A DNA stretch of 64,000 bases from Tubulanus polymorphus (Eukaryota > Animalia > Nemertea), in NCBI RefSeq assembly GCF_964204645.1, contig NC_134026.1:11927950-11991949 (forward strand), in the 5' to 3' direction. Both the position numbers and the translations under genes were made by a program. This document shows, piece after piece, positions 1 through 56,610 of this stretch (position 1 is the first letter of the stretch; the number at the start of each line of letters is the position of its first letter). The notes beneath the pieces are model-generated. The model had not been told where the DNA came from. It worked only from the letters and a program-made list of their open reading frames with translations, and searched no databases.

Positions 1-293
1 AGTCCAACGTCTTCATCATTTATGTTAAGTTTAGATTTTTCAATTAAATCTTCTAATTTAGGTATTTTGTTTAAATTATCTAAATCTTGTTTTACTAAAC
101 CTGGGTCTAAATTTTCAGGATTTAATTGTGATTCTGCATTTTTAATATAATCAGGCATATTTAAATTATTATTATATTCTGGCTCATTACCATCATTAAA
201 ACTTGTTTCACTAAAATCAGGTTGTTGTTCATCAGTTATACCAGGTTCATCAAAAGGATCCATTCCAATATCTTCTCCACCTTCTACATCCAT
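1..293 (-). CDS. Polinton hypothetical acidic protein, N-terminal part (MDVEGGEDIGMDPFDEPG...), runs off window
   Basis: ATG within TATATAAATG at 293; frame open to position 1. Confidence 0.6.
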   Translation of the reverse strand, partial: MDVEGGEDIGMDPFDEPGITDEQQPDFSETSFNDGNEPEYNNNLNMPDYIKNAESQLNPENLDPGLVKQDLDNLNKIPKLEDLIEKSKLNINDEDVG

Positions 294-309
294 TTATATA
301 ATAAAAAAA

Positions 310-1395
310 TTAAAATTTAAAATATAATATTCCTCCTATAACAATTCCTATACAAGTAAAAGCTAATTTAGTATTTTCATGTAATTTATTATGATTATCA
401 GTTTTAATTATATCATGTTGAATATTATCAGTTTTAATATTTTCTGTAGTATTGTAATCTTTTATTTTGGAATCATTATTTAATTTAATATTATTAGTTT
501 TAGTTTCTGTTGATTGAATGTGTTTTTTATTTTTTTCACCTTCCATTAATTTTGGAGCAGTAATAATCTTTTTATTTATATCATTCAATCCAAATGAATT
601 ATTTATTGTTGCAGTTTTAATTAGATTATTATAACCAATTATATTTCCCATCTTTAATACTAAATCATTAGAAATAATAAATAGATTAGGGCCTATACAA
701 TAATTTAATCTAATATGTGATTTATCTAAATAATTTTGATATCTTACAATGTTTTCCGGAATCGATCTATTTTTATCATTATGAATTGAATCTTCAAATA
801 ATACTTTGAATTGTTTCTGCGCATCGAATGAAGTGTTATCATTTCCAATTATTGGGGATCTTGTTTCAACTTGCGCACCTAGAATACATATCAAATAAGT
901 TCTAATAGATTGATTTATTCTTTGTATTCCAGCTTTAGTAAAACCTTCACTATTTTCTAAAATGAAATTAACCCAACCATTATTGTTTTGTTGTTGCATA
1001 TTATTATAATATTTTGGTAATTCATTCCAATTTAGTGTTCTTATATCTGAATTTGTCATTATTTTTCCAAATTCTTTAGTATACAATATTCCTAATCCAC
1101 CCATTGTTCCAATTTTTGCTCTAAAATCTTTATTTGAATTAATATTAAATTCATTACATATTTTATAAAACTTAGAAAAATTAATATCATTATTCAATTC
1201 TTTAAAATATTTTGAACCTGGTAAAGGACATTCTAATTCATCTAATATTAATTTTATTTGAAAATATGTATGAAATCTAAAAAGTGATAACATCAATGGT
1301 AAACTTGGTTTGTTTAAATGATCATTCCAACTAATTCCACATCCTGTTGTTGCACAATAAACAGCAAAATTTAATTGGTTCTGCCAATACTTCAT
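310..1395 (-). CDS. Conserved Polinton hypothetical protein (WQNQLNFAVYCATTGCG family) with C-terminal TM anchor; probably 5'-truncated
   Basis: 361 aa ORF. I recall this motif from invertebrate Polinton-like elements. Hydrophobic C-terminus; no TAAATG at the start; frame continues upstream (QNEAKQWLLKSNM). Confidence 0.65.
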   Translation of the reverse strand: MKYWQNQLNFAVYCATTGCGISWNDHLNKPSLPLMLSLFRFHTYFQIKLILDELECPLPGSKYFKELNNDINFSKFYKICNEFNINSNKDFRAKIGTMGGLGILYTKEFGKIMTNSDIRTLNWNELPKYYNNMQQQNNNGWVNFILENSEGFTKAGIQRINQSIRTYLICILGAQVETRSPIIGNDNTSFDAQKQFKVLFEDSIHNDKNRSIPENIVRYQNYLDKSHIRLNYCIGPNLFIISNDLVLKMGNIIGYNNLIKTATINNSFGLNDINKKIITAPKLMEGEKNKKHIQSTETKTNNIKLNNDSKIKDYNTTENIKTDNIQHDIIKTDNHNKLHENTKLAFTCIGIVIGGILYFKF

Positions 1396-1423
1396 ATTAG
1401 ATTTTAATAACCATTGTTTTGCC

Positions 1424-1711
1424 TCATTTTGAACTTATACCAGTTAAAACACTTGAACTTAATCCTAATACACCAATTGATATAGCTAAAGGTGTTAATG
1501 GACTGAATATTGCTAGAAATGTTATTACAGAACTAATTGTAACCGAACCACTTATAATCAAATAGTATATAATTTTACTTTTTAAATATTTTTTCTTTTT
1601 AACTTTTAAATCATTTTCAAATTCTAATATTTGTTTTTCTAAATATGATTTTAATTTAGTTTTATTTATATCATGAGGAATAATGTCAATATTATCAACT
1701 TTATCTTCCAT
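1424..1711 (-). CDS. Small two-TM membrane protein (possibly 3'-truncated)
   Basis: TAAATG start; two hydrophobic segments. Confidence 0.55.
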   Translation of the reverse strand: MEDKVDNIDIIPHDINKTKLKSYLEKQILEFENDLKVKKKKYLKSKIIYYLIISGSVTISSVITFLAIFSPLTPLAISIGVLGLSSSVLTGISSK

Positions 1712-1730
1712 TTATTTAGAAAAAAAATTA

Positions 1731-2157
1731 CTAATTAGTAAACTTATAAGCAACAAATATAACAATAACTGTTCCACCTAAAATCCAAATTATTTCATAT
1801 TTCTTCTGTTCATTACTTGGGGTATAATAATCTGATATTGTAGGTTTATGTAGATGTAATTTTTCTTTATTGGTTACCGCGTTATATAAACTCTTTGCAT
1901 CATCAACTAATTGAAAATCTCTATGTGAAATCTTCTGATCATATAATTCCTTGTTAATATAATCCATATAGTTTTTTTTGTCGTTTCTCTCTATATTCTT
2001 CTGCTGCTTTATTATATTTCTCTAATGCTAAGTTATGTCTTTTTTGTTCTGTTAATGATCCATTTTTATCAATATGTTTAAATAAATAACCACCACCAGT
2101 AAATGCTAAAGCGTTAACAATTGCCGATCCTATAATAGTCATAACTGCAGAAGCCAT
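1731..2157 (-). pseudogene. Polinton membrane/virion protein (MASAVMTIIGSAIVNALAFTG...PTISDYYTPSNEQ...TM), split by a frameshift in an A-run near 1975
   Basis: ORFs 1954-2157 and 1731-1967 overlap at a poly-A run; only the first has a TAAATG start. Confidence 0.65.
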
Positions 2158-2181
2158 TTATTTAGTAAAATAATTATGTAT

Positions 2182-2403
2182 TTATATGGGAGGAATATAT
2201 TTTTGCTTTTCTAAATAATCAATAGTTAAATTAGATAAAGTAACTGCTAATGTTAATTTTAAAATATCATTGATATCAAATCCATCAACATTAACACTTC
2301 CCATTTTGAATACCTTTTTTAATACCATTGAATAACCAACAGTTCCAACTGATAGTAATGCTCCATTATATAATCCAGTTATTATCCACTTATTATCACT
2401 CAT
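2182..2403 (-). CDS. Small hydrophobic Polinton protein (ends DYLEKQKYIP)
   Basis: 73 aa ORF with TAAATG start. Confidence 0.6.
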   Translation of the reverse strand: MSDNKWIITGLYNGALLSVGTVGYSMVLKKVFKMGSVNVDGFDINDILKLTLAVTLSNLTIDYLEKQKYIPPI

Positions 2404-2410
2404 TTATTTA

Positions 2411-2764
2411 TCAAAAAAAATTACTATCATCAAAATATTTAGTTATCTTAGTGATGATTAATTCAACATTTATTTCATTACTGCTTTTATGATTATCATA
2501 TATTTCGGTTAATATGTTTTTAATATCATCTATGATAAAATCTTCAATTAATTCATAAAATCTTAAAGATACTCTAATTAAATAAGTAATCTTTTCTACA
2601 TTTAAAGTTTCTTTATCTATTGTTGTTTCATACTCAAATGTTGTTTCATTAGAAAATGTAATATTTTTGATATGTGTAATTACATCATTAATGTTAAATT
2701 TCATTTCTTTCTCACGTTTAAAATCAAATCCAAAACATATACTTGGTCCAACAGTTATATTCAT
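2411..2764 (-). CDS. Hypothetical protein
   Basis: 117 aa ORF with TAAATG start. Confidence 0.5.
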   Translation of the reverse strand: MNITVGPSICFGFDFKREKEMKFNINDVITHIKNITFSNETTFEYETTIDKETLNVEKITYLIRVSLRFYELIEDFIIDDIKNILTEIYDNHKSSNEINVELIITKITKYFDDSNFF

Positions 2765-2780
2765 TTATATAGTGAAAAGA

Positions 2781-3538
2781 TTACTCTTTACATCTTATAA
2801 CTAATTCATAAATTACAGGAAAGTTATTCAAATCAATTAAATAACCATTATGATTTCTTATTTCTAATTTAAAATTATTGAAATGTGGAATTCAAGGTTT
2901 AAAATCACATTCAGTTAAATTATAATTTATTTGCGTTCCAAATTGTTTAACATTTTTTAATGGTAAAATATTTAATATACTAGAATTACAAATTGTATCT
3001 TTAGTTGCTTCAAATGTTTTTGTTGGGTCAATTAAATTGCAATAAATATAAAAATGTGTAAAAGGTATTAAGTTTGATCTACCTTCTGCGTATGCTGTAA
3101 CAATATCTGGGTTAATTCCTAACAGTTTACCTAAAGGTTTTCTTACTGTAAATTTAAATTGTTCGTCATTAGCTAACCTAATCTTTATTTTATTAGAACT
3201 ATCACTTTTTAAAATTCTAATACTAAATCCGGAATCACTTCCTAATTTAGCTCGAGCTTTTCTATTAATTTCTTGTGCTAATGTATCTAAATTATATAAT
3301 CCTGGTTTTAAATATAAAAAAACCATTTATTCCTTTTTTTGTAAAAGATTGAAAAAATTAAATGTTCTAGACTTTTATCCGATACATTATAAAAAGAATT
3401 ACATAAACTTATATTTACTAATTTCAAATCAACACAATTCTTAAATTCTCTATCTAATTGAACTATTAAATTATGAGATTTATAATTTGTAAGTTTTCTA
3501 GAATCAACAAATATTCTGTATTCTTTTAATTCTACCAT
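2781..3538 (-). pseudogene. Minor capsid protein (penton-like), one frameshift (~3330) and one in-frame TGA (2892)
   Basis: Motifs IFVDSR..LIVQLDR..LVNISLCNSFYNV and FYIYCNLI..SILNILPL; after the stop, FNNFKLEIRNHNGYLIDLNNFPVIYEL. These are typical of Polinton pentons. Confidence 0.7.
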
Positions 3539-3606
3539 TATTTATAACATGAAAAAATTACCGCTCATCACTAAAAATTAATTTTAATAAAATTTGTCCT
3601 TAATAA

Positions 3607-4918
3607 ATGGATGAGAAGATAGCATGCGAAATTTGTGGTGAACTTCTAAGAAAAAGTAATATGGCTCGACATGAAAAAACATGATGAAAATTATAAACCC
3701 CCTAAACTAAACTGCCCAAAATGTAATAAATTATTCTCAAGAAATTATGTTAAAAAACATTCAGAGAAGTGTAAAATTAATGGCGCAACGGCTAATGTTG
3801 ATAGTAATGAAAGTAATAGTAATTCTGTTGAAGTTGAACCTGAAGGTATTTGGAAAAGACCTTTCTTATTCTATGATAAGGATAATATAAAAGATCATAT
3901 CTGTGAGCCTTGTCAAGTAAAATATAGCCCTGAAAATATAGAAGATTGGGAGAATCATCAATTTCGTAAAGCACATATAGATAAAATTTCTAATAAATTT
4001 GAAAGTGAATTCAACGAAAGAAAAAATAATTTATTAGAAAAAATAAAATATGAGAAAACGTTACCAGATAAAGAAACAGTTGAAAAGTTAGAAAAACAAT
4101 ATAATGAATTAACAAGAAAAACATATTATTGTAAATATTGTAAATTGATTATTACAACAAGTAATTCAAATCTACATAATAGAACAATAAAACATAAAGA
4201 AAACGTAAGAAAATTCCAGGAGCTTAATGAAGATCTATTACCAATAAATTATAAACGAAAATGTCCACAATGTAGTTATGCGACCTTAAGACAAGAAGGT
4301 ACTGTGTTATTTTGTAATGAATGTGGATGGCAAAAGAATTTATTGGGTGAAGAAAAAACTAGAAATTTTCTCATAGATCCAAAATTAAATTATCTAGATG
4401 AAATTTTTAAAATATTTTCTGTAGAAGATCATACACCAGAATATATGCAATGGCTTGAAAAAATGAAAATAATAGAAAATAAAAATGGTGAAATAACTAA
4501 AAAAGATATTATAAAAACAATTATTCCATCAACATTTAACACAAAACAAAAGAAAATGTATCTATATTTATTATTTAACGATTATTATGAAAAACCTAAA
4601 TTAACAGAAGAAGATATGAAAAATATAAAAGAAATATTCAAACAAATATTAATGTATCATTTGGAAAATAGAATAACAGATTCAATAAATTATGAATTCT
4701 TTTTAAATAAGATTGTAAATTATTCAAACATAGATATTATAATTCCATTTGACGAATTAACAAACAAAAAGAAACAAAGAGAGCGAGATGAAATGTGGAA
4801 CAAGATAGAACTTTATTTAAATGAGAAAAATGAAATGGAAGAAGAACCTAAACAATTAAATGAAAATGAAGAAGCCAATAGTGATTTCGAGTATGATGAT
4901 ATTGATTTTATGTTTTAA
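3607..4918 (+). CDS. Multi-zinc-finger protein with C-terminal poxvirus VLTF3 (A2L)-like domain; frameshift near 3670
   Basis: TAAATG start at 3607 (MDEKIACEICGELLRKSNMARH). C2H2 fingers, a CPQC...FCNECG ribbon, and C-terminal SINYEFFLNKIV...KKQRERDEMWNKI resembling VLTF3. Confidence 0.65.
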
Positions 4919-7900
4919 TAACCATAAGGTAATGTTTTTATACCATCATCTGAAATATGCCTTTTATCATCAAATGGATTCAAACTAGTTTTTTCAACTT
5001 CATTAATGTACATCTCATGATCTTCTGATCTTAAACAATTCATTTTGTGTTTCATTACAATTGAGTTATATAAACACTTTATATAATCTTAAAATTCTAT
5101 ATGTTTATCAACCACATGTTTTGTTATTCCTTTTAACTTTTTAGCTTCATGATCTTTTGTTCTATAACTATACATTTTACTTCTTATCCCAACAAATTCA
5201 ATCATTTCATCACCCCCTAATTCATCTTTAAACTTACCAGGAATCTTTTTATTATCATTGCTAAATAGTTCATGATCTTTGGGATAATTGCTAAAAATCA
5301 AAATGATGTTTTAATGTTTTTAGGTCTTTTGTTATGTCATTTGTCTTGATTTTAGTATGTAGGCGTCAGTATTTTTTTGGATTAATGGGAACCCAGAATT
5401 GAATGTTCCATCATCTGTTGATAAATCATAAACATAGTCAGTTGGGTTATATATTTCAAATAAATCTTTAACTTCTTCAGTTAAATCTTTTTCTACATGC
5501 CTTAAATTAAAACAATTTGGTTTAGATTTAATCAACCCAATATTCATATTGAAGCCTAATGAATTACATAATATATTCAATCCTGATATAGCAACTTTTC
5601 CTTTCTGTGCAAAGGTTATCTTTTTATCCTTTGTAAATTTTTTAGTGCCATCTGCGGCATAGAATCCAATGAAGAACCATTTTCTTAAAATATTTTTTGC
5701 ATTTAATACATAATCTGGAACTATCTTTTCTTTTGTTGAAGTATTACTTTTCACTATTGCATGAATATAGAATTCATCATTATATTTTATAGCAAAATCT
5801 TTAGGATTATTTACAAGTATTCTATAAACTGCTGATGATTTCATAACATCCATGATTTTAAATGTTTTATTTGGATAAACTTCTTCACAGAATTTCTTAA
5901 TTCTTTCTAATAATTTTAAGTCTTGATTGCATAAATACCAACAATATTTATTACCCCAAACATAATTATACACACCTGCTGAACCATCACCCATGAAAAA
6001 TCCCTTGATAAAATATTCTTTTTCTTCTAATGTTTTGGGTTCTCCATTATAAATATTATCAATTATTTCATCAAATGACATATGATTCATTCTTTGGAAA
6101 AATCTTTTATGTAATAATTCATCTCCAATTTTATATCAGTTGGTTTTATTTCATCGCCATTTCGTTTAATTAAACTATGATTTTCTGTAACATCTACAAA
6201 CCCTAATTTAGTTCTAACTCTATAGATATTCTTATTTGTTTTATGCCTAATAATATTCTTTAATTTTTTCCATCCATTTCTTGTCCAAACACCCATTAAA
6301 CCATTTATTTGTATTAATTCTTTTTCACCATATGAAATATAACATTCATTTTGTTTTGGAATTATTTCTGAAATTCTTCTTATCAATATTCTATCATTAC
6401 ATTTTAATAATATTGGGGTGTGAGCTGTTACAGAATCAAAATATAATATTTCAATATGCTTTTCCCCAAAAAGTGGTTGTAAAACGTTATAATAAAAATC
6501 ATACATTAATAATTTTGATACTTCTAAAACAGTTGAACCAATAAATATAGGTTTATTAAATTTCATTGACGTTCTTTGTAATTTAACTGCTGTTAAATAA
6601 TCTTCAAATCTTTTATTTCCTAAATGTCTAGGACTTGATTGTAAATGTCTTAATCTTTCAGAATTATTCACTAATTCAATATCATTTCTATTTCTAATAT
6701 TTTCACATGTTTTACCATAAAAACTATTATTCATTAATTTGAAGAAATCTTTTTCAAAATCTGTTTTTGATATTGTTCTCTGTTGAGTATTGAAATCTAT
6801 ATATTTTTCTAACCACTTCGATTGATTAAATTCAATATATCTATGTACTTTCTTTAATTTCATTCCTTGTTTTAGATAAAATTTTTACATTCTATAATGA
6901 ACAATATAATTGTATTTATTATTTTGAGTAAGTATTAATTTTTCTGTAAAAACATGATCTTTCGTTTTTATTTTCTTCTGGTATTCACTTAAATAACTAT
7001 CATCTACAGTTAAATGTTCTGGGCAATAAGGTAAGTTTCTTGTTTTAAACTTTATATTTTCAGGATATTCTAAATCAACTACAAAGAAATAACCAATTGG
7101 TGCTTCATCTTTTAAACTCGCAATTGCGCTTTCCCAATCAGTTTTATCACCATTTTCAACTTCTGTTAATATAAAATTTGTGTATGGTTGAGGTTGCATC
7201 ATTGCCCAACCATATAAATTATTGGCATCAATATATAATAATTTATATTCATCATTTGCTTTAAAATACCTCATAATAATCTCCCATAACACCACTAATT
7301 CCACCTCTAATTGATTTTTCAAATAATAAAACCATATCTGGTTCTTTTAATAAATCTAATTCTACATTTGTATATTTTAAACCACATTGCCAGGTTAAAC
7401 CAGGACTAGAGTAGCAATAACAAGGATCAACATTAAAATGATTCAAATTAACTTCTCTAAATTTTTCAAATATGTCAGCCAATATCATAACATCTGATTT
7501 TTAATATAAATCAACTAATTCGCCATGATTTTTCATCTTAAAATGGTTCCAAATATTTAATGTTTTATTAAACACTTCGTCATTCACATACTCCTCTTTT
7601 AATTGATCATAAAATTGATCTTTTAATAATTCTGTTACATTAAAATCATTGTGTGTTTTATAAAATGAATAAGGAATTGCGCCTTTATATCTCAATAATT
7701 TAAAATCTTGGTCATTTGGATAATAATATCGAGTTATTATAAAATCATTATCAACTAAACTTTTTGCTAAATTATCTAATGAACTTGAAATTGAAATGAA
7801 ATATAATTTTCCGATGTTTTACCTAATAGTTTAAAATCATATTTTCTTACATTTACACCATTCATAGCATTATATTCTTCTATTTCTTGATTAATTGTAC

Positions 7901-9947
7901 CCAATTTCTTTGATAATTGTTTTATAAATAGATGGGTATCATAACCCGATAAATTATGAAATAATATTGGTACGAAATTAACTTTCTTAGCTTGTAAATT
8001 GCAATCTTCATGAGCAGCTCCACGATATTTTCAATTTAAATGATCATGATCTCTAACTTTTTTTATCAAATGAATAAAAACGTTTTTCACAATAACAACA
8101 ATGAGTTGCATAATTAAAATCAATTTCATCTTCTTTTGTCATAACTATTCTTTTATTTTTGTTTAATAATTTTGCAAAATCACTTTCTAATTCAATCATT
8201 TTATCACAAAAATCATTAACTACATTTTCACCTCTAAAAGAAATATATTGACTTTCATATAATTCAGGATAATTTGATTTTATATAAATTCCATAAGCAG
8301 CAGCTCTTTGATGAACTTTTTTAATTGTATTTATAATTGGTGGGTCTTGAATTATGTCTTCATTTAATTCATGTCCTTTGTCCATTGATTTTAATAATTG
8401 CTTTTTGTTATATATTTCTTTTCTATCTTGATCAGTTAATTCTTTATTCAACGATTCAAAATCCCCATAAATTACAAATGGAACAATATTCTTAAATTTA
8501 TGATTAGTAAATTTCAATTTATAATCTTTTTCTGTTGGCATTATTAATTTACAAAAATCTTTATTATCACTAAATTCTTTATGTTTTAATAATGTATTCT
8601 CAGCCATAAATTTAGATAAACATTTTCTACATAGATAAATTTTACGATGATGATCACTTTCTGTTGTTCTAAAGAATAAATCAGTTTGTTTTAACCACAT
8701 ATAATGTTCATTTTCATCTTTTTTGTAATATAACAAATCTATAGCATTTTCATCATCATAATATTCTGTTAAATATAAAGCTTCCAATGTATAATCTTTA
8801 ATATTTTCACCTTTTGTTTTTGGTAATTGCATTAATTCGAATACATTTATTTTCAAATTATTAACTTTTTCTATTTTAGGAATCATTTTTATAGTTACTG
8901 GATATTGATCAATTTTATATAATGTTTCATATTTCCGGTAATCTGTTATTCTACAAACATTTTCCCGTGTTGGATGTAAGCAACTAATAATTGACCATAG
9001 AAAACATTTATTATCTTCATTTTGAATATTTATTACTGCTTTTGTTGTAAATGGTAATTTAATATAAGATGATGCTTTAATATCCTTTTCTGTTGTAAAG
9101 TTTGAATCATTTTTAAACATTTTATTACGTTTTGATGTTTTATTTCTTTTTGTATTATAAACATTTAAATCTAAATATATAATTTCATTCAATGTTAAGC
9201 CAGAACCCTCAAAATATCTTCAATATGACGTTTAAATTCATTTAATATTTTTTCTTACTTCTCTTTTATTTGTGTTTTTGAAATTATTTCTTCAGAGAGT
9301 GTTTGAATATTATAATTCTTTTCTTCTTCTGACTTTATAAAACTTACTTTCCCAGAGATACTAATTTTTGGATATTCAACATCTGTTATCAAATCTAGTA
9401 TTTTTTCTATTATTTCATTAAATTTACTATAATCCTCTATTGTTGTTCCTTTAAAAAATCTAAATATAATAGCTGCAGGACCAATTTTACTATGTAATGT
9501 TTCTAAGATTTCAATTGTATCTTTTATTTCTAGTGAATCAATATAATTTCTAACATTTTCCATGTAAGGTTTATTTGAAATGGATTTAGTTTTTGAAGTT
9601 GGTTTTTTTACTTCTTGAGGTTTATCATCAAAATAATCTTTTCCTAAAACATCATTACTCAAATTTTGGTGGTGTTTTTGTCATTCGAGATGTCTATTAT
9701 AATTCCTTTTTACTATAAATTCATTACAAACTTCACATTTTATTTCATCCACATTCATATTTTCTAATCTTTCTTTTCTTTCATTGGAATTTTCTGGAGT
9801 TTCAAAATCTATTACATTTTTTATATGATTTGCAGTTTTTTCATGTCGTGTTGTATGAGATGTATCGATGTATTTTTTACAATATTGGCAATAATATTGA
9901 TTTTTATTAACATTATTGTTTTCTGGCTGGTGTTCATTCTCCCCCAT
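4915..9947 (-). pseudogene. polB: Protein-primed family B DNA polymerase (zinc fingers, OTU-like NEDNKCFLWS, endonuclease VII-like insert, exonuclease, polymerase), several frameshifts and stops, intein-containing
   Basis: Motifs YGDFES, DHDH..YRGAAH..CNL, FHNLSGYD, YSSPGLTW, YIDANNLYGWAM, KLMNNSFYGKT, YFD/TD, GKFKDE, GIRSKMYS, NPFDDKR..TLPYGY*. Confidence 0.93.
5371..6434 (-). mobile_element. Intein with LAGLIDADG homing endonuclease (~355 aa) in PolB motif C
   Basis: Block A SVTAHTPILLK directly after YFD; block B VTENH; LAGLIDADG blocks FIKGFFMGDG and FFIGFYAADG; block F YVYDLSTDDGTF; terminal KN followed by extein T-D. One 1-nt loss in an A-run near 6130. Confidence 0.9.
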
Positions 9948-10032
9948 TTATTAGGAAAAAAAATTACTTGTGGTGATGAGTGGTGTCTCGCCCTCTCGCC
10001 CTCTGATCTGAAACCCCACTTTTACAATTACT
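9944..10032 (-). repeat. Polinton terminal repeat including the polB promoter
   Basis: Near-identical to 61948-62035; first ~45 nt also match 60596-60641. Confidence 0.85.
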
Positions 10033-10600
10033 GATAAACAAATCATTTTCACGTATGAAAACAAAATTTGTAAGACTTTGGTTAAAAACAATCAATCTAA
10101 GCCTTTGGACTGCGGAGTTTACAAAATTATTTGTTTTGGCTGTGATAAAATTTACTTTGGAGAAACTGGTCGTGATTTAAAAACTCGAATTTCGGAACAC
10201 AAAAAGGATATAATAAATCAAAAACCGTAGCCAATCACGTTTGGAACACTGGGCATCGTTTTAATTTTGATAAAGCCGAAATTATTTATACTTCCAGCAA
10301 TTACACTAAACGCCACATAGTTGAGTCTGCCCTAATTACTCGTCACTCATATATATGTACCAATTTAAATAATGGCTTTTCTCCGCATAATTCCCTTCTT
10401 TCTAAGTATATTTCTTCATGCCTTGCCAAACACTAATTATTTACTCACTCACCAATTTACTCAATTAACCTGTCCTCCTCTGTATATATACCCCCCTTTT
10501 TAATCTTAATCTCACACCTGACGATGATCTCTAGGGTGAGATTGAAACGTCGTGTCTTTTATATATTTTTGATTGAATAAATAAATTCTGGTTTTTAAAT
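10033..10600 (+). mobile_element. Penelope-like retroelement 3' fragment (GIY-YIG endonuclease plus pLTR)
   Basis: Translates GVYKIICFGCDKIYFGETGRDLKTRISEHKKDI...NHVWNTGH..IVESALI..NLNNG; followed by a hammerhead and AATAAA. Confidence 0.85.
10514..10555 (+). ncRNA. Minimal type I hammerhead ribozyme
   Basis: ACAC-CTGACGA-T-GATCTC(loop)GAGATT-GAAACGTC-GTGT. Confidence 0.75.
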
Positions 10601-11374
10601 TATTTTAATCTGTAAATAGTGGGATTTTATCTTAACCCTTACTTTGATCGATAGTGCCCCTTCCCTGTTTTTTTTTTTGTTTGGTTTAAACATGTCTAAC
10701 AACTAAGCTCCCGAATTCATCACTTTTTCAGAAATTCTTTCAAATATTGAAATAGGGCGATTGACCTCGTTATTTATTCGATTGGTAGATTTCGTTTGAT
10801 TTTATGATTTGGGTCCAACATAATGAGTTTTCCGGTTTGCTCGGCTACCCGTACTGGCGGGGTAGTCTAGATAGGCAAATGAAAGCTCCGGTTTGCTGAA
10901 CTACCCCTCTTTGCGGGGATGCGGTATGATGTTTGATCTGACAGTTTCAAGTGGTTAATGGGTGTTTCAAGTGCTTACAACGATGCTTATTACTTAATGT
11001 GGTACATGGTGGTTTAAAAAAAGATTTCATAATGATACGCTCAAAGTATAGGCCTACCGCGTGGGCTTCGTAGAAAGACCACTGTCTGTGGCCTTCCCAA
11101 ATTTTAATTGTTCTGTCCGATTTGGTTTCGTCCAATTGAAAGACTGCCTTTTCCAGTTAGGGCATTTTTGGATCACATCACTCAGGAAATGACTTACGCT
11201 TTTGGGCCCTTTCGTCGGTCCCACGTGTTTCATTTGAGCTGTAGACCACATGGTGACACCATGATGGTCAGAAACTGACCAATTGAGATATTCCCGAGTC
11301 TGAACACCTGACTGCGAATTTCGGAAATTTATCAAGTCATGTTTGTTTTCAAACTACCGAGGTATCATCATTGC

Positions 11375-11652
11375 AAATTCATAAATTGACCATCACTGAC
11401 CACCACTGACCAATTCAAACTTCTCGAATATGAGTTCGATATACCGCGTTATGGTGTCAAACTAGAAAGGATTCGCCATAAATATTGAGAATTCATAAAT
11501 TTACCATCACTGACCACCACTGACCAATTCAAACTTCTCGAATATGAGAACGATGTACCGCGTTATGGTGTCAAACTAGAAAGGATTCGCCATTGAAAAT
11601 TCATGAATTGACCATCACTGACCACCACTGACCAAGTGAAACTTCTCGAATA
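11375..11652. repeat. ~115 bp tandem repeats with a triple (AC)TGACCA motif
   Basis: TGACCATCACTGACCACCACTGACCAA repeated 3 times; mirrored at ~27500-27870. Confidence 0.8.
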
Positions 11653-13374
11653 TCGTCGAATTCGAAAGTGGTTGTCGTCGTATTGTTATTTCTAGAGACC
11701 AGCAGTATGTTTCGCTACTGTTTCTGAATGGCGTTGACATGATGGAAATATATTACTCCTAAATAGGTTACACATCTGGATCACAGCACCTCACTTGCCG
11801 CAGTGCGTAATTTTGACTGCATAGTAATGCTAATACATAAACTTTTTTACTACTTGACTCAAAGCTTGACTCGAATCATCTGAACAGTACTGCGTTTGAA
11901 AACGAATAGAAAATGTTTGCGAGAAGCACCTGCAAATAAGTTATGATAAGATTAAATCTATGGTTAATCGATGCTTAAAAAAACAATTAAATCAGAGGCA
12001 AGATGACTAACAACCGTCTTTCAACCAATCAGCGCGATGCCAATTAATTAAATCATTAAACGCATTAGGCTCCTAATATTTGTAATCATTTGTCGTTCTT
12101 TAAACTTGGCCACTTTTGTTTCAGAAAACCGCGTACTAGACAAGTGGTCACCAAGGCATTAAAAAAGTTTTGAAAATTCGATGGTAACGATTTGTTTCGT
12201 TAATATTTCAAGTTTTTTTAACTCTTGTACAGAATTCACTATATGAAAAGTGTTCATAGGAATTGAAATTCGGTGTGATATCAGTCACCTGTTACCCCTT
12301 TTTCATTGTCAGTTCTTTATTGCACTATCATGCGCTCTTCTAAAATAGAAAAGAACATGTGTGTTTCGTTATAAACAAGGTTAAATTCCAAACGCACATG
12401 AAATATCACACAATATACACATCTAGCATTTTCTCTAACTAGGCCCTTTCCAAATGGCAATTGTTTAGTTTTTTAACGGCCGACATTCAGAAGCTCCTAA
12501 AAACCAGTGGTAGCGCTTGAGATTTTCAGTGTAGGTCACATCTCACATCGACTCGGCTCGCAGTCGGTTCGTTAAATGGGAACACATCTGGTTGACACTA
12601 GTTTCACAGTTGACGAAATCAGAAAACTTTTTTCAAATGCCTTTGATAACATCTTAAACATAGTATTCTTCTTAATTACATTTCGTTGATTCCATAGATA
12701 TGTTTTTATGAAAATTGCTCCAGTTATAACGGATTCAAACATACATGTGAAATCATTATTTTCAAAATATTAAATTTTCTCCGCTTTTGAAGAAATTCTG
12801 ACACAATATCATCTCCACTCGACACATGATTTTACTTCGGCGCCTTTAAGGGAGTGTCCCTTAAAGTTGAGTTCTTACTTAGTCAAACAAGGAGATATGC
12901 CTGATTCCTTTTTAAAATTTAGATTTCGACATATATCATCAAATTACTAGAAAGGGACAGCAGCGTTCGGTCATCCACGAAAAATACCTAAAATGCAGTC
13001 CTAGGGTTATGGAAAAACAGGACACGAAACATACAGAAAAATCCTTTGTTTGGTTGACTGAAATTATTATTGAACTCTTAAATAGCGACATTCAGAGAAA
13101 CAAAAACATAAGAATATATATAATCTCGCCCACCCGTTAAAAAACATAACGTAATGAGGCCATGTGTCATCTTTAATTGAAATCACATTATATTCATTCT
13201 CATGCGAGGATGGGTCCCCAAATTCATAGGATAAGGAGAATAATGGTTTGAATGATGAATACAACTGATAAAGCGCCAATTTCACTGATTCTTGCATATA
13301 AATGCTCAAAGGCGCTTTACAGTAATCGAGTAAACAGGTGCGTTTTTAGGAGTCTTTTGAATTTGAATTCAAAT

Positions 13375-13801
13375 CGGGTGTTCATGACGACTATAGGCGC
13401 TTTTACGAAACTGAATCTTTGTAAATCGATTTAAGTTTCACGTTTACGGCACGCGGTTTAGTGAATCCGATTTGGTAAATCAACTCGTTTATGGACGCGG
13501 TTTAGTAAATTGATTTATTAAATCGACTAACTTGCTCGGCGAGCAAGTTAGTGGCGATTTAGTCAGTGAAATCCAACATGGCGTCATCTTCGACCGCGGG
13601 CTAAAGACATCTATTGCAGACCATCATCTATCAATAATTCGGTCACCATTGACGCCCATTTTCTTTCGAATCGCGACCTTTAGATTGATAAATTGATTCG
13701 ACTCATTTACGAAAAACGATTCGATTTACTAATCCTTACGTTTTCAAACATCGAATCGGATTTAGCTAAACCGAATCAGATTCAATTTCGTAAAAGCGCC
13801 T
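13375..13801. mobile_element. MITE present only in the left arm
   Basis: TIR AGGCGCTTTTACGAAA/TTTCGTAAAAGCGCCT; absent at the matching site near 24550. Confidence 0.8.
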
Positions 13802-16800
13802 TATAATTGAGCATTCTAGGGCTGGAGCAAGAAACGTGTGGGATCGTCCGCCAAGGTATCGCTAAGGAGTCAGTCCGTGGTGGCTTTTGAAAGCGACGAC
13901 CGCATATGAATGCATTGATTGAATGACATCTCAAAAGTCAGATTATATAAAATTAAACATGATATACGGATAGGTTCTTCCAATTTGGCCTATACTGGTA
14001 GGCCTAAAAATGAAATGACCCAATATGTGATATAAATGTTCAATCAAAAAGTAGAAAGTGAATCCGTAATTCAGTATGGTAGGCCTATTGTTACAACATC
14101 AAACACTCAAATTCAATCCTTTGTTAAATTGGAAGCCAGTGTAGATGAGCAAGTATCGTGGTCCCTGATTTTAGTTATCGTAATAATTCAAGCCACGCGA
14201 TTTTGAACTGTTCAACAAGTTGGAGTTTGTGTAAAGATGAATGAGTTTGAAATGGAGTGGACTTCAGATATTACTGTTCGCATGCCTATGTCTATTACTT
14301 AATCTTTTTACTTATCATAGAAAATTGTGGTAAAATATTTTACTCGACGGTTGGTTTTAGATTGTATCTCTCCAAGCCAGAGGTAATCACGGATATCGGA
14401 CTACAAAAAATTCCTTGTGTAAAGCTCAACTTTGTAAATTCCTGGAAAAGCTCGCCTCGGATATTTCAATAATGATTAAACATTAATTTTCCCAACGAAA
14501 AACCTAAACAACCAATGTACGCTTGCTTTAAGTTTACCAATGCACTATCGTTGCTTTTTCTAGCTATTTGTACTGTTTGCCGCAAAAAGATTGCATCCTC
14601 TATTACAGGATTTAAGGATACAACTCTAAAACCAGTTAGTTTAAATTAACCATTATACAATATGATACATGACCAAATACACTGTTAATATGAAAAAGAT
14701 CCAATATGCACACATTTCAAATCTCAAACCAAGTTTTATCATTAGAAAATAACGACACGACGTTCGATCGTTCACTAGAGATCATGTTTTTGAATTTGTA
14801 CACAGTGAATTTTCGTATCGTATTATGGTATTATCAATTCTCCGCATTTGAGGGTGACTATTCTACGAATACAAAGTTATTTTTAGCAATGAAGTTTTAA
14901 TTGTCATTTTAAATGTTAACTATCCACTGGTATGTAAACTTACTAACTTTTGGCAACTGACCTCAAATCGTGGAATGGGCTCAGGTAGCCTGCTGATCCA
15001 CTCTTTATTAATACTACTAAAGAAATATTCAGTATAAGACGTAAAAAGTATATTAAAGTACTATTTATCTTTATATCGCAATAATTTGTGTACGTATGAT
15101 TGAAAAACGATATTCTATGGAGTCTCATGTTACGTACTTATGATTATTGTGTATAAGATCAATAATTAGCAACCTTCCACGGATACGAAGCGGCCTAAGT
15201 TTACATCCTACCATAATTTTCTCTAAACTCTCAGCATTATATCAAGATCGGTCTTAGAAAATATATGAAGGACGTGTTCACAGGTTAACGAGGCCAAAAA
15301 TCTTCCTCAAAATTTCAAATTTTTACGAGCAAAGATAATATACTTCATGCTTTTGGTGCAGAAATAATGGATGTCCACAAATTGCAAATTGTGTTTTCAA
15401 AGTAAACGATCCGAGTGTGGAATTGTTTCGAATTCAGGGTTCTCCCATTTACTCTCCGGTATTCTACAATGTTTCAATAAGATACGTAAGTCGCACTTTT
15501 GTTGTGATACAGCTTTCTCTATTGGTCAGCGTTGTGATCACTTAAAATTACCCATAAGTTTGAATTCTCACTGAACTACTACATCCCTTATAACGAATAT
15601 ATATTTCATATGAGGCGATTAACTTTGATGATCTGTGGTCAGTGGACAGCAGTTACGAAACATTCAAAACTACTACATAATCTTCCATCTATTCATTATT
15701 CATATATATGATATGATATGATATGATATAATATCTCCTTTAGTGTTCAGTTTAAACGTCTTGAACGCAAAAGTTTGACAAGTTTCGCATAATGGTACCG
15801 ATACGCACGTTCACACTAGTGAAATGTGCACGTTACAGGTTCAAATGCGCACGTTACAATTACAAATCGAAACGTTGTTCGTTCAAAACCCGATGTGAAA
15901 ATCTTTTGCATTTAGTGGGAAATTTCAGAGTTAGCTCGCTTCCTACAATAAAAATTGGACAAGACTTTTAAATCGACACATTTAATAAGAGTAGTACTGA
16001 CGAAGGATTCAGGCAATACCCCGTGTTATTTCTAAAAACATTTAACCGGTAATTAGACAGTACTGGTGTAGCTTGTACAGGTAAAAGAGTTATTATATTT
16101 ACGTTCAGACCGAATGAAATTATTTGATACGAGACACGACTAAGTTGTGTCCGAAACAGATAAATATAGCTATGTGGTCAGTATTGGTCAAGATTTGGTC
16201 ACTTGAATAGTTGTTAGATGAAAGCCCACACTATTTCTAATTATTTGACACCAAACACGACTGTGTTGCTTCTAGAATAAACAAATTACTTTAAGGTCAG
16301 TATTGGTAAAATATTGGTCAGTTAAATAGTTGTTAGATCATAGCCCGCACCGTATCTAGTAGCTCGACGCCCAAACACGATTTTATTGCTTTACTAAACA
16401 TATAAATTACATATGGTGGGTTCTAGTTAGTGGTAACTGGTCAGTACTGGTCAAGCATTGGTCAGTTAAACAATTTTTAGTTTAATGTCCACATTATATC
16501 TAGTTATTTGACACCAAATAACTTAATTGTTTGCAAAACAGATAATTTACTATATAGCCAGTACTGGTCATGCATTGGTCAGTTGATAAACCAAGGTCCA
16601 CGCCACGAGTTATTTGATACTAAACATTATTGTGTCGTTTCGGAAAATTTATCTGTTGGGCAACTTGTGGTCAGCCCTGGTTCGTTAGTTCTTATTTTGC
16701 GGGCATTTTATCTCGAACCACCGAAAGACTGAATTACTAATCAATTCAACAGATCATTAATTAATTAATGGAAATGAAGATCAGTGTTAACTAAGTCCTT

Positions 16801-16849
16801 AGTCTGAATAAAATGTATGTGGTATTATATGGGTGCTATGGTGCTGTAC

Positions 16850-17115
16850 ACATCTTCACCCGTCAAGGGATTCGAACCCACTACGCTAAAGCTGTTCCCC
16901 GAACCCCTTGACCTCACGAGTCGTTGGAGTCGTTACTAGCCGACCAGAATCCGGTCGTACCAATCACAGCGCTTGTAACAAACCGTAAGTAGACTTCTGT
17001 TGGGTTTCCCGTTAAATTGACCAATCAGCGAACGTTTTACCGAACAAGGAAGTATTTCGCAAATCGATATATGACGTCACGCGCAACAGCTCCAGTAATG
17101 AAATCACGCTTCGTG
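16850..17115 (-). repeat. Dispersed repeat with a Pol III B-box-like GGTTCGAATCC
   Basis: Inverted copy at ~38335-38550. Confidence 0.6.
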
Positions 17116-17286
17116 AGGTCAGGGGGCTCATTATGAGAATGCCGGTTTGCTAGCGTATCTATTTAACACCCGTATTGCTCGGGTTAGTTTTACTATCAAC
17201 GGGTGGCGCTGTATGTAAATTTCACATACTTCGTTGAGTACGGACGTGTTTTCGGCGCGCTCTGCAAATTCTATTCAGTGTCAACC

Positions 17287-18105
17287 ATGGCGAACAACAG
17301 CAGGCTGAGTACATCACCGCCGAGAAAGCAGCAGAAAATAGGGAAAACAACTCAACGTATTCAGATATCCGAAAAGCAATTAAAACAGATTATCGAACAG
17401 AAACCCGCGACATCGGCAACATCGTCACGTGTCGGTGGAAGAGCTGACGACGAGTTATCGACTAAACTTGATACGATTATTGCGCAACTCACTAAACTTG
17501 ACGTGTTACAAAAGGATATGTGCGAGGTTAAGCAATCACTCGAATATTGCCATGAAGACGTCAGGCAGTTGAAACAGGAGAATGTCATGCTTAAAAACAA
17601 AGTAAGGGACTTAGAACAGTTAGTTGCGGATCAAGAAGCGATTGTGCGATCGGATCACGAGCTCTTGCTAGACCAGCAGTGGCGAAGTATGAGGGATAAT
17701 CTCATATTTTACGGAATCGAGGAGAGCGATAACGAGGATACGGAGAAATTGATCAAGGACTTTTGCGTGAATGACTTGAAATTGGCGAAGGAGAAGGTCG
17801 ATTCGATGGAATTCGCGAGATCGCATCGAATGGGCAGCAAAAAGAAACAGCTAAAAAAACCTCGTGCTATCGTTGCGAAATTTGAGCACTATAAAGATCG
17901 CAAATTTGTGCGCTCCGCCGCGAAAAACCTTGCCGGATCATCGTTGGGGCTTAGCGAGCAAGTCCCGGAGGAATGGGCAGCCCGCAGGCGCGAGAAACTT
18001 CCAGAGTTGCGGGCTGCGAAAGCCAGTGGTAAGCGTGCGTTTTTCGTCCGCGACAAACTAGTTATTCGTGATCCGTATGATCGTTCAGCTATGGACAGCG
18101 CCTAG
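17287..18105 (+). CDS. LINE ORF1 (coiled coil plus RRM-like)
   Basis: SMRDNLIFYGIEE, FARSHRMG, PRAIVAKFEHYKD motifs. Confidence 0.8.
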   Translation: MANNSRLSTSPPRKQQKIGKTTQRIQISEKQLKQIIEQKPATSATSSRVGGRADDELSTKLDTIIAQLTKLDVLQKDMCEVKQSLEYCHEDVRQLKQENVMLKNKVRDLEQLVADQEAIVRSDHELLLDQQWRSMRDNLIFYGIEESDNEDTEKLIKDFCVNDLKLAKEKVDSMEFARSHRMGSKKKQLKKPRAIVAKFEHYKDRKFVRSAAKNLAGSSLGLSEQVPEEWAARRREKLPELRAAKASGKRAFFVRDKLVIRDPYDRSAMDSA

Positions 18106-18147
18106 GAAGTCGCGGAGGGCTTCTGCTTAGAGTTCGTAGATCGCGCG

Positions 18148-21100
18148 GTGCTCCAGTCGAGAAAGCGGTGTTTTGTTGTAGAGTTTGTTAATAGTATTCA
18201 CATATATCAAGATGTAAATAGCGGAAGTGAAAGTTTAGATTCATGTGTTCCTGTAAATAGCCAAAGATTTAATATTACGTCAGATAGCGAAACTTGCAAT
18301 TCTTGTGATGAGCAAAATGTAATTATTGATGATCCTGTTGGTATGAATTTATCTACTCTTAATGTGTGTGGTTTGACAAGCAAACTTGACATCCCGGAAT
18401 TTTCAGATTTTATCTGCAGTAACGATATTGTATGTTTGACCGAAACTCATCTAGATGATGTAGATGGTGATCTAAGCAGTAGTTTGCCCGCTTCTTATGT
18501 AGGTCATTTTAAAAATAGGAAACGGTTTTCGAAGAAAGGCTCTGGTGGCGTTGGCATCATTTACAAGAAACTTCTACAATCTAAAATAAGACCAATTTCG
18601 ACTGACAGTCAATATGTATCTTGGTACCTATTAGATAAGTCTTTATTTAATTACGACAAACATATACTTTTAGGTGTGGTTTATATTCCCCCCGAAAATA
18701 GTCGCTACTATTCGGAAGGAGCAATTAGTGAAATCGAGTTAGAACTATTACAATTAAGAGTCGAACACGATATCAATGTATTAATTACTGGAGATTTTAA
18801 TGCCCACACTTCTTGTTTGCCTGACTTATTAGAACCTGATATTCATATCATAGACGAACATAATTTACACTCTATTGTTGACTCGCAGCTGTCATCTAAT
18901 CTAGGTGTCCCCACTACTAGAAACAACCAAGACAAAAGAACCAATAATACCGGATATCAATTAACTGACTTGTGTAACAATCATTCACTAATCATTCTTA
19001 ATGGCAGGTGTGGCAGTGACCAGTCTGGTAATTATACCTTTAAGGGCACTAGTGTTATCGATTATTGTTTGAGTGATGTTGAGTTGTTTAATTATTTTTC
19101 TAAATTTGAAATAATGCCTTTCGATCCTTTATTATCCGATGGACACAATGCTATCTCGCTCTGTTTGTATGTGGGCATTAGGGACACTGTTGTTGATAAC
19201 GAAAATAATGGGCGGACGGAAGAGATCCCGTCAGTGAGATGGGACAAAGAAAAATCAGATCAATTCTTTGCTACCGTTGAATCAAAATTGTGTAACGCTA
19301 ACCTGAACGATTTACTGTTGAACGGGCTTCAGAATGCAGATACGCAAACAGCTGACTGTATAAATGAACTTACTGATAAATTTGTATCGTCATTATTAGA
19401 AAGTGCCGATGAGTGTAATCTTATGCAGCATAGGAAAAGCAGTAGCCGTAAAAAGCAAGCGTATAATAGGTGGTTTAGTCGGGATTGTAGAATAGCGCAA
19501 AAAGAGTATAATTATAGGCGAAATAGATATAGGAGCTGTCCGAATTCCGCAAACTTAGAATTTTTAAAGAACTCGTCTAGGAAATATAAAAAAACTATTC
19601 AAGAATCTAAAAGAAGACAGAAAGAAAACTTTATCAAAGAATTAAGAGAATGTGAAATTAGTAACCCTAAGAAATACTGGTCTATGCTGAACTCAGCGAC
19701 AGTAACAACAGTTGACAAAGATAATATCGATATCGATACTTTCCTTGAACACTTCATGAGACTGAATGATTTGAATATTAACGTATACGAGCAGACTGAT
19801 ACCATTACTGAAACTCAAGATGATGACCCACCTGATTATGACAACTCCATGTTAAACTGTGAAATTTCTACTGAAGAAATAGGCAAAGCTATATCTTCAT
19901 TGAAAAACAACAAGGCATCTGGTATAGATGGAATTATCAATGAAATGCTGAAAGTTAATGAGTATCCATGTATAACAAGGATATTACAAAATATTTTTAA
20001 CTTAGTACTTAAAACTGGCCATGTACCAGAGATGTGGTCCGTTGGCGTCATTAAACCCATTTTTAAAAACAAAGGAGACCCCGCCAATCCAGATAATTAT
20101 AGAGGCATCACACTAGTTAGCTGTTTAGGCAAATTATTTACAAGTATATTGAATCAAAGACTGTCTTCATTCCTAGATATTAACAACATTATCAGTGAAG
20201 CTCAGGCTGGTTTTAGATCTAAATACTCAACTATTGTACTGTAAACTACAGTTACACTTAGATACATTATTTGAATATTGCACAGACAACGGCCTCACTG
20301 TAAATGTCGATAAGACAAAAATATTAGTTTTTGCGCGAAGTAAATCTAGAATTAAGCAAATTCCAAAATTTATGTTTGGCAACCAAGAATTGGAGATAGT
20401 TGAAGATTATTTGTACCTCGGAGTTAAATTCAACTGGAACGGTAGTTTTGTTAAAGCAAGAAAATATCTTTACGATAAAGCTATGAGAGCTATGTTTTCT
20501 ATTATCCAAAAGGGTAGGCGCCTGAAACTCCCAATCGACGTAATGTTTAAATTATTCGATATGTGCGTTGCCCCTGTTGCCATGTATGGTTGCGAGGTAT
20601 GGGGATACGAAAATTTAGACTTATTAGAAAATATTCATTGTCTTTTTTGCAAGATTTTAATGAAGGTAACAAAGTATTCTCATAATTTACCGGTGTTAGC
20701 AGAGTTAGGGCGTTATCCTTTGTTCATTGAAGTAAAGCGTAGAATGATTAATTTTTGGTGTAAAACTGTATCTGGCAAACAATCTAAGCTTAATGCAATA
20801 CTCTATCGAATTTCCTGTAATCTGTATCTAAATGACAAACATACTAGTCCTTGGCTTTTCAGTATTAAACAAACCTTTGATGACTGCGGTCTGTCCTATG
20901 TATGGATGCAACAATATATGCAAAGTTCTAGGGCGTTCTCAAAATATGTAAGACAAATTCTACGTGACCAGTATGCACAAGAGACTATTTTCAAAATCAA
21001 TAATAATCCGTTATATATTAATTTCAGGGAATACAAAAACGATATTAAATTTGAGAATTATATTAACCAACTAGGTGATAATTGTGTTTTTAGTTTTTTT

Positions 21101-21361
21101 CAGTTTAGAATAGGATCCCACCTATTACCTGTACATAGATTTTCTAATCTCCATATACCTAGAAACGAAAGAATGTGCCCAATCTGCAATGTTTTTGGGG
21201 ATGAATTACATTTTCTCTTTGATTGTAAGATTCTTACCGAACTTCGCAATACCATTCCGAATTTAGAAACATTTAGAAACTTTGATATATTAAAAACTCC
21301 AAATTTTCAATTAGCACAATTTATAAAAGATGGTTTAGATGTATATAGATCCCTCCTGTAG
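18148..21361 (+). pseudogene. LINE ORF2 (AP endonuclease, RT, Cys motif), RT core deleted at ~20240
   Basis: CLTETH, TGDFNA, SVIDY, SDGH, NYRGITL. QAGFR then jumps to LQLHLDTL..NVDKTK with no QG or YADD motif. C-terminal CPIC..DELHFLFDC. Confidence 0.85.
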
Positions 21362-24233: not shown

Positions 24234-24477
24234 ACGATTGGTAGAACACTATATCCGTGTTGACGCGATGAGGAGAGAATCCCACAATGATAATAAATAG
24301 TCCGAAAAAGAAACTTCGAGATAGTAGTTTATTTCAACGTTTCGACTATATCCTAATAGTCATCTTCAGGAATAATTCCTGAAGATGACTATTAGGATAT
24401 AGTCGAAACGTTGAAATAAACTACTATCTCGAAGTTTCTTTTTCGGACTTTTTATTATCATTGTGGGATTCTCTCCT
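24234..24477. mobile_element. Penelope pLTR-only palindromic insertion with two opposed hammerheads
   Basis: ~105 bp near-perfect inverted arms; duplication CTCCTTATTATTTC at 24220-24233 and 24478-24491; same family as 51617-52428. Confidence 0.85.
24376..24415 (+). ncRNA. Minimal hammerhead ribozyme (mirror copy at ~24333-24372 on the minus strand)
   Basis: TTC-CTGAAGA-T-GACTAT(loop)ATAGTC-GAAACGTT-GAA. Confidence 0.75.
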
Positions 24478-35828: not shown

Positions 35829-35996
35829 ATGAAGTTCAACAAGATGGTTTCTTCTTCACGAAGGAAAAATAGAAAACGTCACTTCAATGCTCCATCGCAT
35901 GTACGACGAAAGATCATGAGTTCTCCTTTGTCGAAGGAACTGAGACAAAAATACAATGTCAGGAGCATCCCGATCAGGAAGGATGATGAAGTGCAG
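35829..35996 (+). CDS. RPL26: 60S ribosomal protein L26 (uL24), coding exon 1
   Basis: [24 protein letters not shown]...RKDDEVQ; AG acceptor at 35820, GT donor at 35997. Confidence 0.97.
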
Positions 35997-36513
35997 GTAT
36001 ATCTCCTGGTGTGCCAATCACTGTTCCTACAAAATATATATTTAACAGTTTGTTGCTTATTACTTCGTTTCGATGTCCTTCGACCGAAAGTTATATTTGG
36101 GCTTCTGAAATACATTTGACAGGGAATAAAGGGCTGCCAGAGTTCCATGCTGTTTTGCCCATGATGTTGTGGTCTCTGGGATCGATGTAAATTTGATCTA
36201 ATAATATTGGGGGGATGGGTGAGCTTAATAGACTGGTTGCGTGTCGAATTCTGAACCTATGGTTGCCTGTTAATGCTATGATGAATTACTCAACTGCATG
36301 GCTCCTTTCTGCAAGTAAACCACCTCATCATTAGGGCCCCTCGAAAATACCCTTTTGTTTTTTTTATGAAACGAAAAGGAATAACTGCAATTTACGATCA
36401 AACTTTTACTGTTCATTATGACAGCCTGGTTATGATATAATGTACATTGCATTACAGAGTGATTATGACATATTGTGGTATACAAATTGTTGCATTCTAC
36501 ATTTATTTCATAG

Positions 36514-36654
36514 GTTGTCCGTGGGCATTTCAAGGGTCAACAAGTTGGTAAAGTTGTTCAGGTTTATCGTAAAAAGTTTGTCATTTACATTGAAAGAATT
36601 CATCGTGACAAAGCCAATGGCGCCACTGTTAATGTAGGCATCCATCCTTCAAAG
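36514..36654 (+). CDS. RPL26: RPL26 coding exon 2
   Basis: [47 protein letters not shown]; canonical splice sites. Confidence 0.97.
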
Positions 36655-56500: not shown

Positions 56501-56610
56501 CCCTAATGCGCACGTAATAAATGAATGACCCCTTAGTTCCTTTCTTGATCCTATGTCAGCAGTAGACGGTGACTCGTCAGTTTTCCCGGCACGACAGACT
56601 CTAATTCAAC
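53560..56610 (+). mobile_element. Ty1/Copia LTR retrotransposon remnant (integrase, partial RT, RNase H, 3' LTR)
   Basis: WHEILGH, VHIDLAGP, IRSDRGTEF, NGTAER, VWVDD, YSDADW, SSCEAEY; purine tract then LTR TGTTG(56219)...CAACA(56610). Confidence 0.92.
56372..56531. mobile_element. Harbinger-type MITE inside the Copia LTR
   Basis: TIR GGGRTCATTCATTTATTACGTRCGCAT; TTA duplication. Confidence 0.8.

Follow-up and report, generated by a model that had tools for sequence, protein, structure and literature searches.

A broken, full-length intein interrupts catalytic motif C of a Polinton-type, protein-primed DNA polymerase (pPolB) gene in an animal genome, that of the nemertean Tubulanus polymorphus. 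Its intact relatives are predicted to splice, are likely to home, and are likely to descend from one old jump out of a giant virus; we assign this reading as a whole a probability of about 0.8. The gene lies in a stretch of 64,000 nt of contig NC_134026.1 (hereafter the window), and the features of this stretch are collected in Table 1. Related proteins are designated by P numbers.

Table 1 Features of the window, with positions counted from its first nucleotide.
Feature	Position	Strand	Details
AT-rich Polinton-like element, 22-26% GC	1..10032		continues past the left end of the window
C-extein of the pPolB gene	4918..5370	-	frame change soon after the splice junction; stop near 5091
Intein, pol-c (YxD|TD) allele, Hint halves and LAGLIDADG endonuclease	5371..6434	-	one frameshift near 6130; in-frame stops 0
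C-terminal splicing region	5371..5433	-	block F VYDL 5422-5433; block G QKN, then extein Thr
Homing endonuclease core	5647..6003	-	GFFMGDG 5983-6003 and GFYAADG 5647-5667; PF14528 and motifs
N-terminal splicing region	6138..6434	-	Ser1 (block A) and block B VTENH 6177-6191; TIGR01445
N-extein of the pPolB gene	6435..9947	-	covers Zn finger, exonuclease and motifs A and B; frame and reading broken at several places by frame changes and stops (pseudogene)
Likely inner end of a terminal inverted repeat (putative role)	9940..10032		89% identical, inverted, to 61948-62040
GIY-YIG fragment adjoining the element's right end	10033..10634	+	PF01541 E=0.00025; loose read ends at 10033 and 10634
RpL26 (ribosomal protein L26), animal type, intron-containing	35829..36654	+	two coding exons, 35829-35996 and 36514-36654

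The intein and the decayed polymerase gene

The initial annotation had placed an intein in motif C at ILYFD|S...N|TDA, and both junctions proved exact: the N junction reads IEILYFD|SVTAHTPILL at 6435/6434 and the C junction NSGFPLIQKN|TDAYILK at 5371/5370. The insert comprises 1064 nt (~350 aa) and is split over two ORFs in different frames (6087-6884 and 5332-6135), as the single frameshift proposed near 6130 implied. Profile searches with both pieces bore out the suggested Hint and LAGLIDADG domains, with TIGR01445 (intein_Nterm) matching the N piece at 28.9 bits (curated cut-off 24.5) and PF14528 (LAGLIDADG_3) the C piece at 27.5 bits (curated cut-off 22.5). PF14890 matched the N-terminal splicing region weakly (E=0.045), and the C piece had no match among PDB sequences. 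The block A nucleophile Ser1 (SVTAHTPI), the block B TxxH (VTENH; VTEDH in relatives), the terminal Asn and the extein Thr (QKN|TDA) are present. The penultimate residue is Lys in place of the usual, though not obligatory, His. The initial annotation had remarked on this Lys, but it is nothing unusual: KN ends 129/243 non-pPolB site-C inteins and HN 94/243, and the pPolB inteins comprise 4 KN, 3 HN and 1 SN (n=8). As the commonest state in the pol-c family, Lys therefore needs no special explanation. Motif C itself reads YFD-TDA rather than TDS, a point absent from the initial annotation; TDA also occurs in the natural relatives P0186 and P0295-P0299.

The N and C pieces were 67% and 61% identical, respectively, to the intein of P0001, an intact pPolB of 1693 aa. 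The P0001 intein and its flanks were modelled with AlphaFold (pLDDT 63). In Foldseek, the best PDB matches of this model were 7qsu, 7qst and 7qss (best E=2e-14), and it matched the endonuclease-bearing inteins TliVMA, PhoVMA, PI-SceI and PI-PfuI. Both LAGLIDADG motifs are kept in all full-length pPolB inteins. On sequence grounds, the insert is confirmed as a full-length, class 1-type intein with a homing endonuclease at the pol-c (position III) site, and a chance match is excluded.

In class 1 inteins, Ser1 undergoes an N-O shift with help from the His of block B, the ester then passes to the extein Thr, and the last Asn cyclises. Intact relatives of the window intein are predicted to excise the intein and to rejoin YxD-TD of motif C. 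Because splicing restores YxD-TD, the polymerase would work only with exact splicing.

The host gene is broken in many places, which also went beyond the initial annotation. In a tblastn search, P0001 matched the pPolB gene between 9219 and 4918 with 35-60% identity, the alignment being divided into five frame segments, and isolated stops lie near 8033, 7503, 6887 and 5091. P0001 scored 62.3 bits against PF03175 (cut-off 25.8), and the N-extein fragment gave E=5.9e-05 with the same profile, which is under the curated cut-off. The C-extein was 85% identical to P0186 over 46 aa. The window pPolB gene is a pseudogene, and the window copy of the intein is a fossil unable to make protein. At the intein break, 181 of the 229 source-organism reads covering it differ from the window sequence; the break is therefore absent from most copies.

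The element and its surroundings

The polymerase gene belongs to an AT-rich element. The middle of the window has 38% GC, and a sharp step in composition at about 10 kb raises the GC content from 24% to 35-39%. The 93 bp match between 9940-10032 and 61948-62040 is shared with a second element, and the right end of the first element is interrupted. We take the adjoining GIY-YIG fragment to be Penelope-type. The proposed identification as a Polinton pPolB stands for the protein-primed polymerase, whose core is 53-60% identical to P0001; integrase, packaging ATPase, protease and capsid families were not found by Pfam and PHROGs in the scanned ORFs of the element's ~10 kb in the window. The label "Polinton" consequently rests mainly on the polymerase.

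Several other genes of the element were considered. The region 2892-3541 may encode a minor capsid protein. The 374-aa ORF at 310-1434 (minus strand) was considered as a capsid candidate and rejected, being mainly helical rather than jelly-roll, with a likely C-terminal membrane helix. It is conserved (136 homologs; model pLDDT 81), had no fold match in BFVD or PDB and no usable match in the Atlas, and possibly represents an undescribed fold. The ORF at 3607-4918 (plus strand) encodes a Zn-finger protein broken near its start, for which Pfam returned Zn fingers only; to our eye the C-terminal half has a likeness to the VLTF3 late transcription factor, for which Pfam and PHROGs gave no support. 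In both AT-rich elements most genes start at TAAATG (293, 1711, 2157, 2403, 2764, 3326, 3607, 9947, 61145, 62033, 62517 and 63599), usually preceded by AGTAA and a T- or A-run motif, as a shared element-specific promoter or leader. These starts are reminiscent of the poxvirus late TAAATG. The second Polinton-like fragment (60500-64000) has an internal duplication with a spacing of about 2450 bp and an endonuclease VII/HNH gene at 62517-63014. A read joint at 9982/9957 contains TTAGG, which we took for a short duplication after considering and rejecting a telomere.

The window also contains RpL26. Exon 2 aligned without gaps to the 14 best PDB chains, and exon 1 ranked the same chains first; judging from the PDB codes, we take the best chains to be vertebrate and fly, and the plant, fungal, protist and nematode chains to be one residue shorter. 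By its sequence, this RpL26 gene identifies the host as an animal, in agreement with the initial annotation. The intein accordingly does sit in animal nuclear DNA as had been claimed, but inside a mobile element and not in a host gene. The rest of the window is filled with LINE, copia-type and PC4-bearing repeats. A large decayed inverted repeat, with many arms that are 90-95% complementary, extends over 11000-28200 around a LINE at 17188-21361, and an inverted repeat pair at 40612-41130 and 56573-57106 carries PC4-domain genes. Rfam gave 0 matches to the whole window.

Reads of the source organism were compared with the element. Between 44 and 47% of the sequence words of 4900-10400 were present in four source-organism runs, a small share (0.06) occurred in a marine metagenome, and no RNA dataset was among the matches listed. 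Depth was taken from a further, independent WGS run of the species dating from 2026, read to about 12% (1.9 Gb of reads). Summed depth over the element was about 140-820, with 138 and 215 in the two intein bins versus 256 and 250 in the flanking bins, and the element reads showed thousands of variant sites. The element is multi-copy in the source organism. No intein-skipping joint was present among the 15 joints listed (362 further joints exist), nor any read or contig bridging element and host DNA among those listed.

Relatives, allele states and descent

Relatives were collected with three queries. With the C piece, 6 longer proteins were retrieved out of 1490 candidates, the P0001 intein gave 1302 matches among 2604 candidates (120 of the 1302 are listed), and a profile search of 50% representatives returned, in its best 150 rows, mostly RNA-primed PolBs and 2 pPolB fragments only. 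By junction pattern, a site-C intein was called in 251/285 proteins, with 34 receiving no call; 8/251 carriers were pPolBs and 243/251 were other proteins, nearly all RNA-primed PolBs. The intein is not unique to the window: eight other pPolB clusters (90% identity), two fragments included, carry it at the same site (P0001, P0002, P0034, P0044, P0048, P0049, P0186 and P0193). Among the matches listed, the nearest relative of the window intein was P0186 (75% over 161 aa), followed by P0001 (61%) and giant-virus-type inteins (37-44%). Being closer to P0186 and P0001 than to giant-virus-type inteins, the window intein came through other pPolBs. The co-infection that had been postulated can be inferred for one old ancestral event, but not for the window intein itself.

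Further searches returned no additional carriers: tblastn against INPHARED phages gave no match, a C-piece pattern search gave 20 viral and 182 metagenome pattern matches, none of them a relative, and a P0186 query retrieved 12 loci, all with extein-only matches, 9 of which have an uninterrupted motif C (script check). In P0048 and P0049, motif C of the pPolB has the odd forms SSD|TDS and ASD|TDS, without Tyr.

The trees were rooted on site-B inteins and did not include archaeal pol-c inteins. The FastTree phylogeny (238/275 rows after near-duplicate removal; root of 19 site-B inteins) placed the pPolB inteins as a single clade inside the RNA-primed PolB site-C inteins with support 100. The clade was recovered at 100/99 by IQ-TREE (LG+G4, 66 chosen rows) and at 99 in a quick C20 mixture tree of 46 rows, in which the enclosing group had 96. 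Site-C and site-B inteins separated at 100/100 in the IQ-TREE phylogeny, with the window intein, inserted at the YxD|TD (pol-c) site, grouping with site C. IQ-TREE joined the pPolB clade and eight mostly KN-ending inteins in a 17-row branch (92/86); the FastTree phylogeny gave the clade other neighbours. A C-terminal G[FT]PLIxxN was found in 9/9 pPolB inteins versus 20/209 RNA-primed PolB site-C inteins. One of these 20, P0055, retrieved 80 IMG/VR loci, many named GVMAG; both window pieces matched 13 of these loci, and the N piece matched 47. The sequence data support giant-virus-type PolB inteins at the YGD|TDS site as the nearest relatives of the pPolB inteins outside pPolBs. The donor was probably a giant virus, and the jump old, single and not necessarily in an animal.

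The window intein and P0001 are a sister pair in both the intein tree and the extein tree. The P0044 intein groups with the window intein (99/89, IQ-TREE), and the motif A-C region of the P0044 polymerase had no BLASTP match to other pPolBs better than E=0.013. Since this intein nests with that of the window though its polymerase is unalignable, a second jump, between pPolB lineages, is indicated.

Intein-plus and intein-minus alleles exist in two related families. The P0002 cluster has 121 members, and the 15 listed comprise 5 plus, 1 minus and 9 not covering the site; to the two sides of the site, P0010 (plus) shares 99.5% and 98.3% identity with P0013 (minus), with an exact joint at YSD|TDS. 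The P0034 cluster has 136 members on contigs of up to 1 Mb, with 7 plus, 5 minus and 3 partial among the 15 listed, and its plus copies are full-length proteins that are 98-99% identical. Relative to P0034, the minus alleles showed 4-5/30 differences before the site, 7-11/30 after it, 2-4 in the next 30 residues and few beyond, versus 0 and 1-3 for the plus copies in the same 30-residue flanks before and after; for P0294, an indel farther upstream inflates these ungapped counts. Such a pattern is as expected if the intein arrived out of another pPolB with short co-converted flanks, and the divergent flanks could also arise by ordinary recombination between subfamilies. The survey for both allele states that had been suggested thus found them in these two clusters, but not among the source-organism joints listed, and the organisms that supplied the P0002 and P0034 alleles differ from the source and may not be animals. 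The intein-minus allele P0294 has YTD-CDS as its motif C, a form that might withstand endonuclease cleavage.

We propose that the LAGLIDADG domain would cut intein-free motif-C sites in sister elements sharing its nucleus and that repair off an intein-bearing copy would transfer the intein with short flanks. Homing among the element's many copies per nucleus would then maintain the endonuclease. Patchy plus and minus alleles, divergent flanks and the P0044 jump would all follow from homing with co-conversion of flanks. More tentatively, the founder may have come from a nucleocytovirus PolB in a cell containing both viruses. At slightly less than even odds, we entertain the possibility that a giant-virus intein entered Polinton polymerases once and is still homing across lineages in animal nuclei, which would make it an active natural gene drive.

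All three trees nest the pPolB clade in RNA-primed PolB inteins, 0% of 200 bootstrap trees hold the RNA-primed PolB site-C inteins as one group, the C-terminal signature is common to one RNA-primed subgroup only, and pPolB carriers are rare. These results speak against another history of the same intein, in which it had an older common source or passed from Polinton-like viruses to giant viruses, without any jump from a giant virus to a Polinton. We consider such a history unlikely, although a clade of all 50 RNA-primed rows without the pPolB inteins was not rejected by the AU test (p=0.078), the stem of the pPolB clade is long (0.27-0.53 across trees), its sister group varies with method, and archaea also carry pol-c inteins according to the accessible text of PMC549080. 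The initial annotation's crossing from nucleocytovirus to Polinton is upheld with regard to kinship, but its direction is less firm in view of the AU result.

A further alternative holds that splicing was kept and homing lost in this lineage, so that the intein travels as a passenger with its element and the plus and minus alleles reflect precise loss or recombination. The pairing of the window with P0001 in both trees is what co-descent predicts, the window copy is decayed, and no empty allele occurs among the source-organism joints listed; against this stand the LAGLIDADG motifs, both intact in all full pPolB inteins, the clustering of P0034-family differences at the site, and the P0044 jump between unalignable polymerases. 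Loss of homing seems to us improbable to a similar degree. Far less probable still is a location of the element outside animal chromosomes, whether in a mis-joined contig, co-sequenced protist DNA or a free virus. Stops and frameshifts occur throughout the copy, as in an old insertion, a host-type retroelement fragment adjoins it, the window contains another, related element at a distance of 50 kb, and coverage with its many variant sites is deep and even in the independent 2026 run; the GC step, the lack of a bridging read or contig among those listed and the marine metagenome share point the other way.

Known systems and significance

The window intein shares its site and size with the archaeal and nucleocytovirus pol-c inteins (position III, YGD|TDS), such as the 351-aa Mimivirus PolB intein described in the available part of PMC549080. 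It also shares their Ser...Asn|Thr ends, TxxH and LAGLIDADG motifs, at the identity to giant-virus-type relatives given above. Unlike in those systems, where the host is an RNA-primed, Pol-delta-like enzyme, the host here is the protein-primed polymerase of a small integrating element. The pPolB inteins also differ in forming their own clade and in their flanks, which are YFD/YMD/YSD/YLD and TDA/TDS rather than YGD/TDS.

Viral-like polymerase inteins likewise occur in eukaryotic chromosomes on nuclear scaffolds of Klebsormidium, Tetrabaena and Hondaea (PMC10710043, sections available). Those hosts are algae and a protist, whereas here an animal carries the intein in a multi-copy mobile element. 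As far as accessible, the main text of that source does not use the words polinton, maverick, metazoa or animal, and two supplements do not use the first three. Selfish-type nuclease domains inside pPolB are also known from the HNH and VSR insertions of Polintons (PMC10748475, partial text), and the idea was anticipated by the suggestion that these insertions stem from "intein invasions" (PMC11071308, partial text). In the accessible text of PMC10748475, however, the inserts are bare nucleases, no splicing domain is described, and "intein" occurs 0 times. The window-type insert, in contrast, has Hint motifs, splits a catalytic motif and has exact empty alleles. With Polintons/Mavericks (adintoviruses), the element shares the PF03175-type pPolB, an AT-rich compact form and a multi-copy state in animal DNA; "intein" occurs 0 times in the available text of the adintovirus paper (PMC8502044), and integrase, ATPase, protease and major capsid were unseen in the window's 10 kb.

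A published overview of inteins in eukaryotes (PMC5784728) records them from fungi, algae, amoebae, a few further protists and four families of giant viruses; in the part available, it names neither animals nor Polintons. Direct homing between such distant genes was called implausible (PMC549080), and relaxed specificity of viral endonucleases was proposed as a route (PMC10710043), both in the portions of these papers at hand. No such intein is described in the accessible portions of PMC3671162, PMC12220804, PMC5718144, PMC13768754 and 10.1101/299784. No report of a Hint intein residing either in a pPolB or in animal DNA was found in the literature covered, which was accessible in part and did not extend to subscription journals, Repbase Reports and InBase. 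The window intein thus appears to be a known intein allele in a new host-gene class and a new kingdom of chromosome, with no earlier report found.

The finding places a complete intein with a homing endonuclease in animal nuclear DNA via a multi-copy element, and in a polymerase class without inteins described in the literature found. It would mark gene traffic between Nucleocytoviricota and Polintons. The natural, matched plus and minus alleles offer a way to examine splicing and homing of inteins in animal cells, a question relevant to the lack of inteins in animals, and the family is a source of new mesophilic inteins and LAGLIDADG nucleases. The living evidence sits in the relatives, the window copy being a fossil.

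Three further arrangements were observed among the proteins retrieved. P0042 is a type II topoisomerase with two inteins, of which the one at DQD|TDG groups with the polymerase site-C inteins, as in a non-allelic jump. In the polymerases P0032, P0035, P0037 and P0087, motif C contains a pair of adjacent inteins separated by only two residues (YGD|intein|TD|intein|S). P0005 is a viral-type PolB with a dihydrofolate reductase domain between its exonuclease and polymerase regions.
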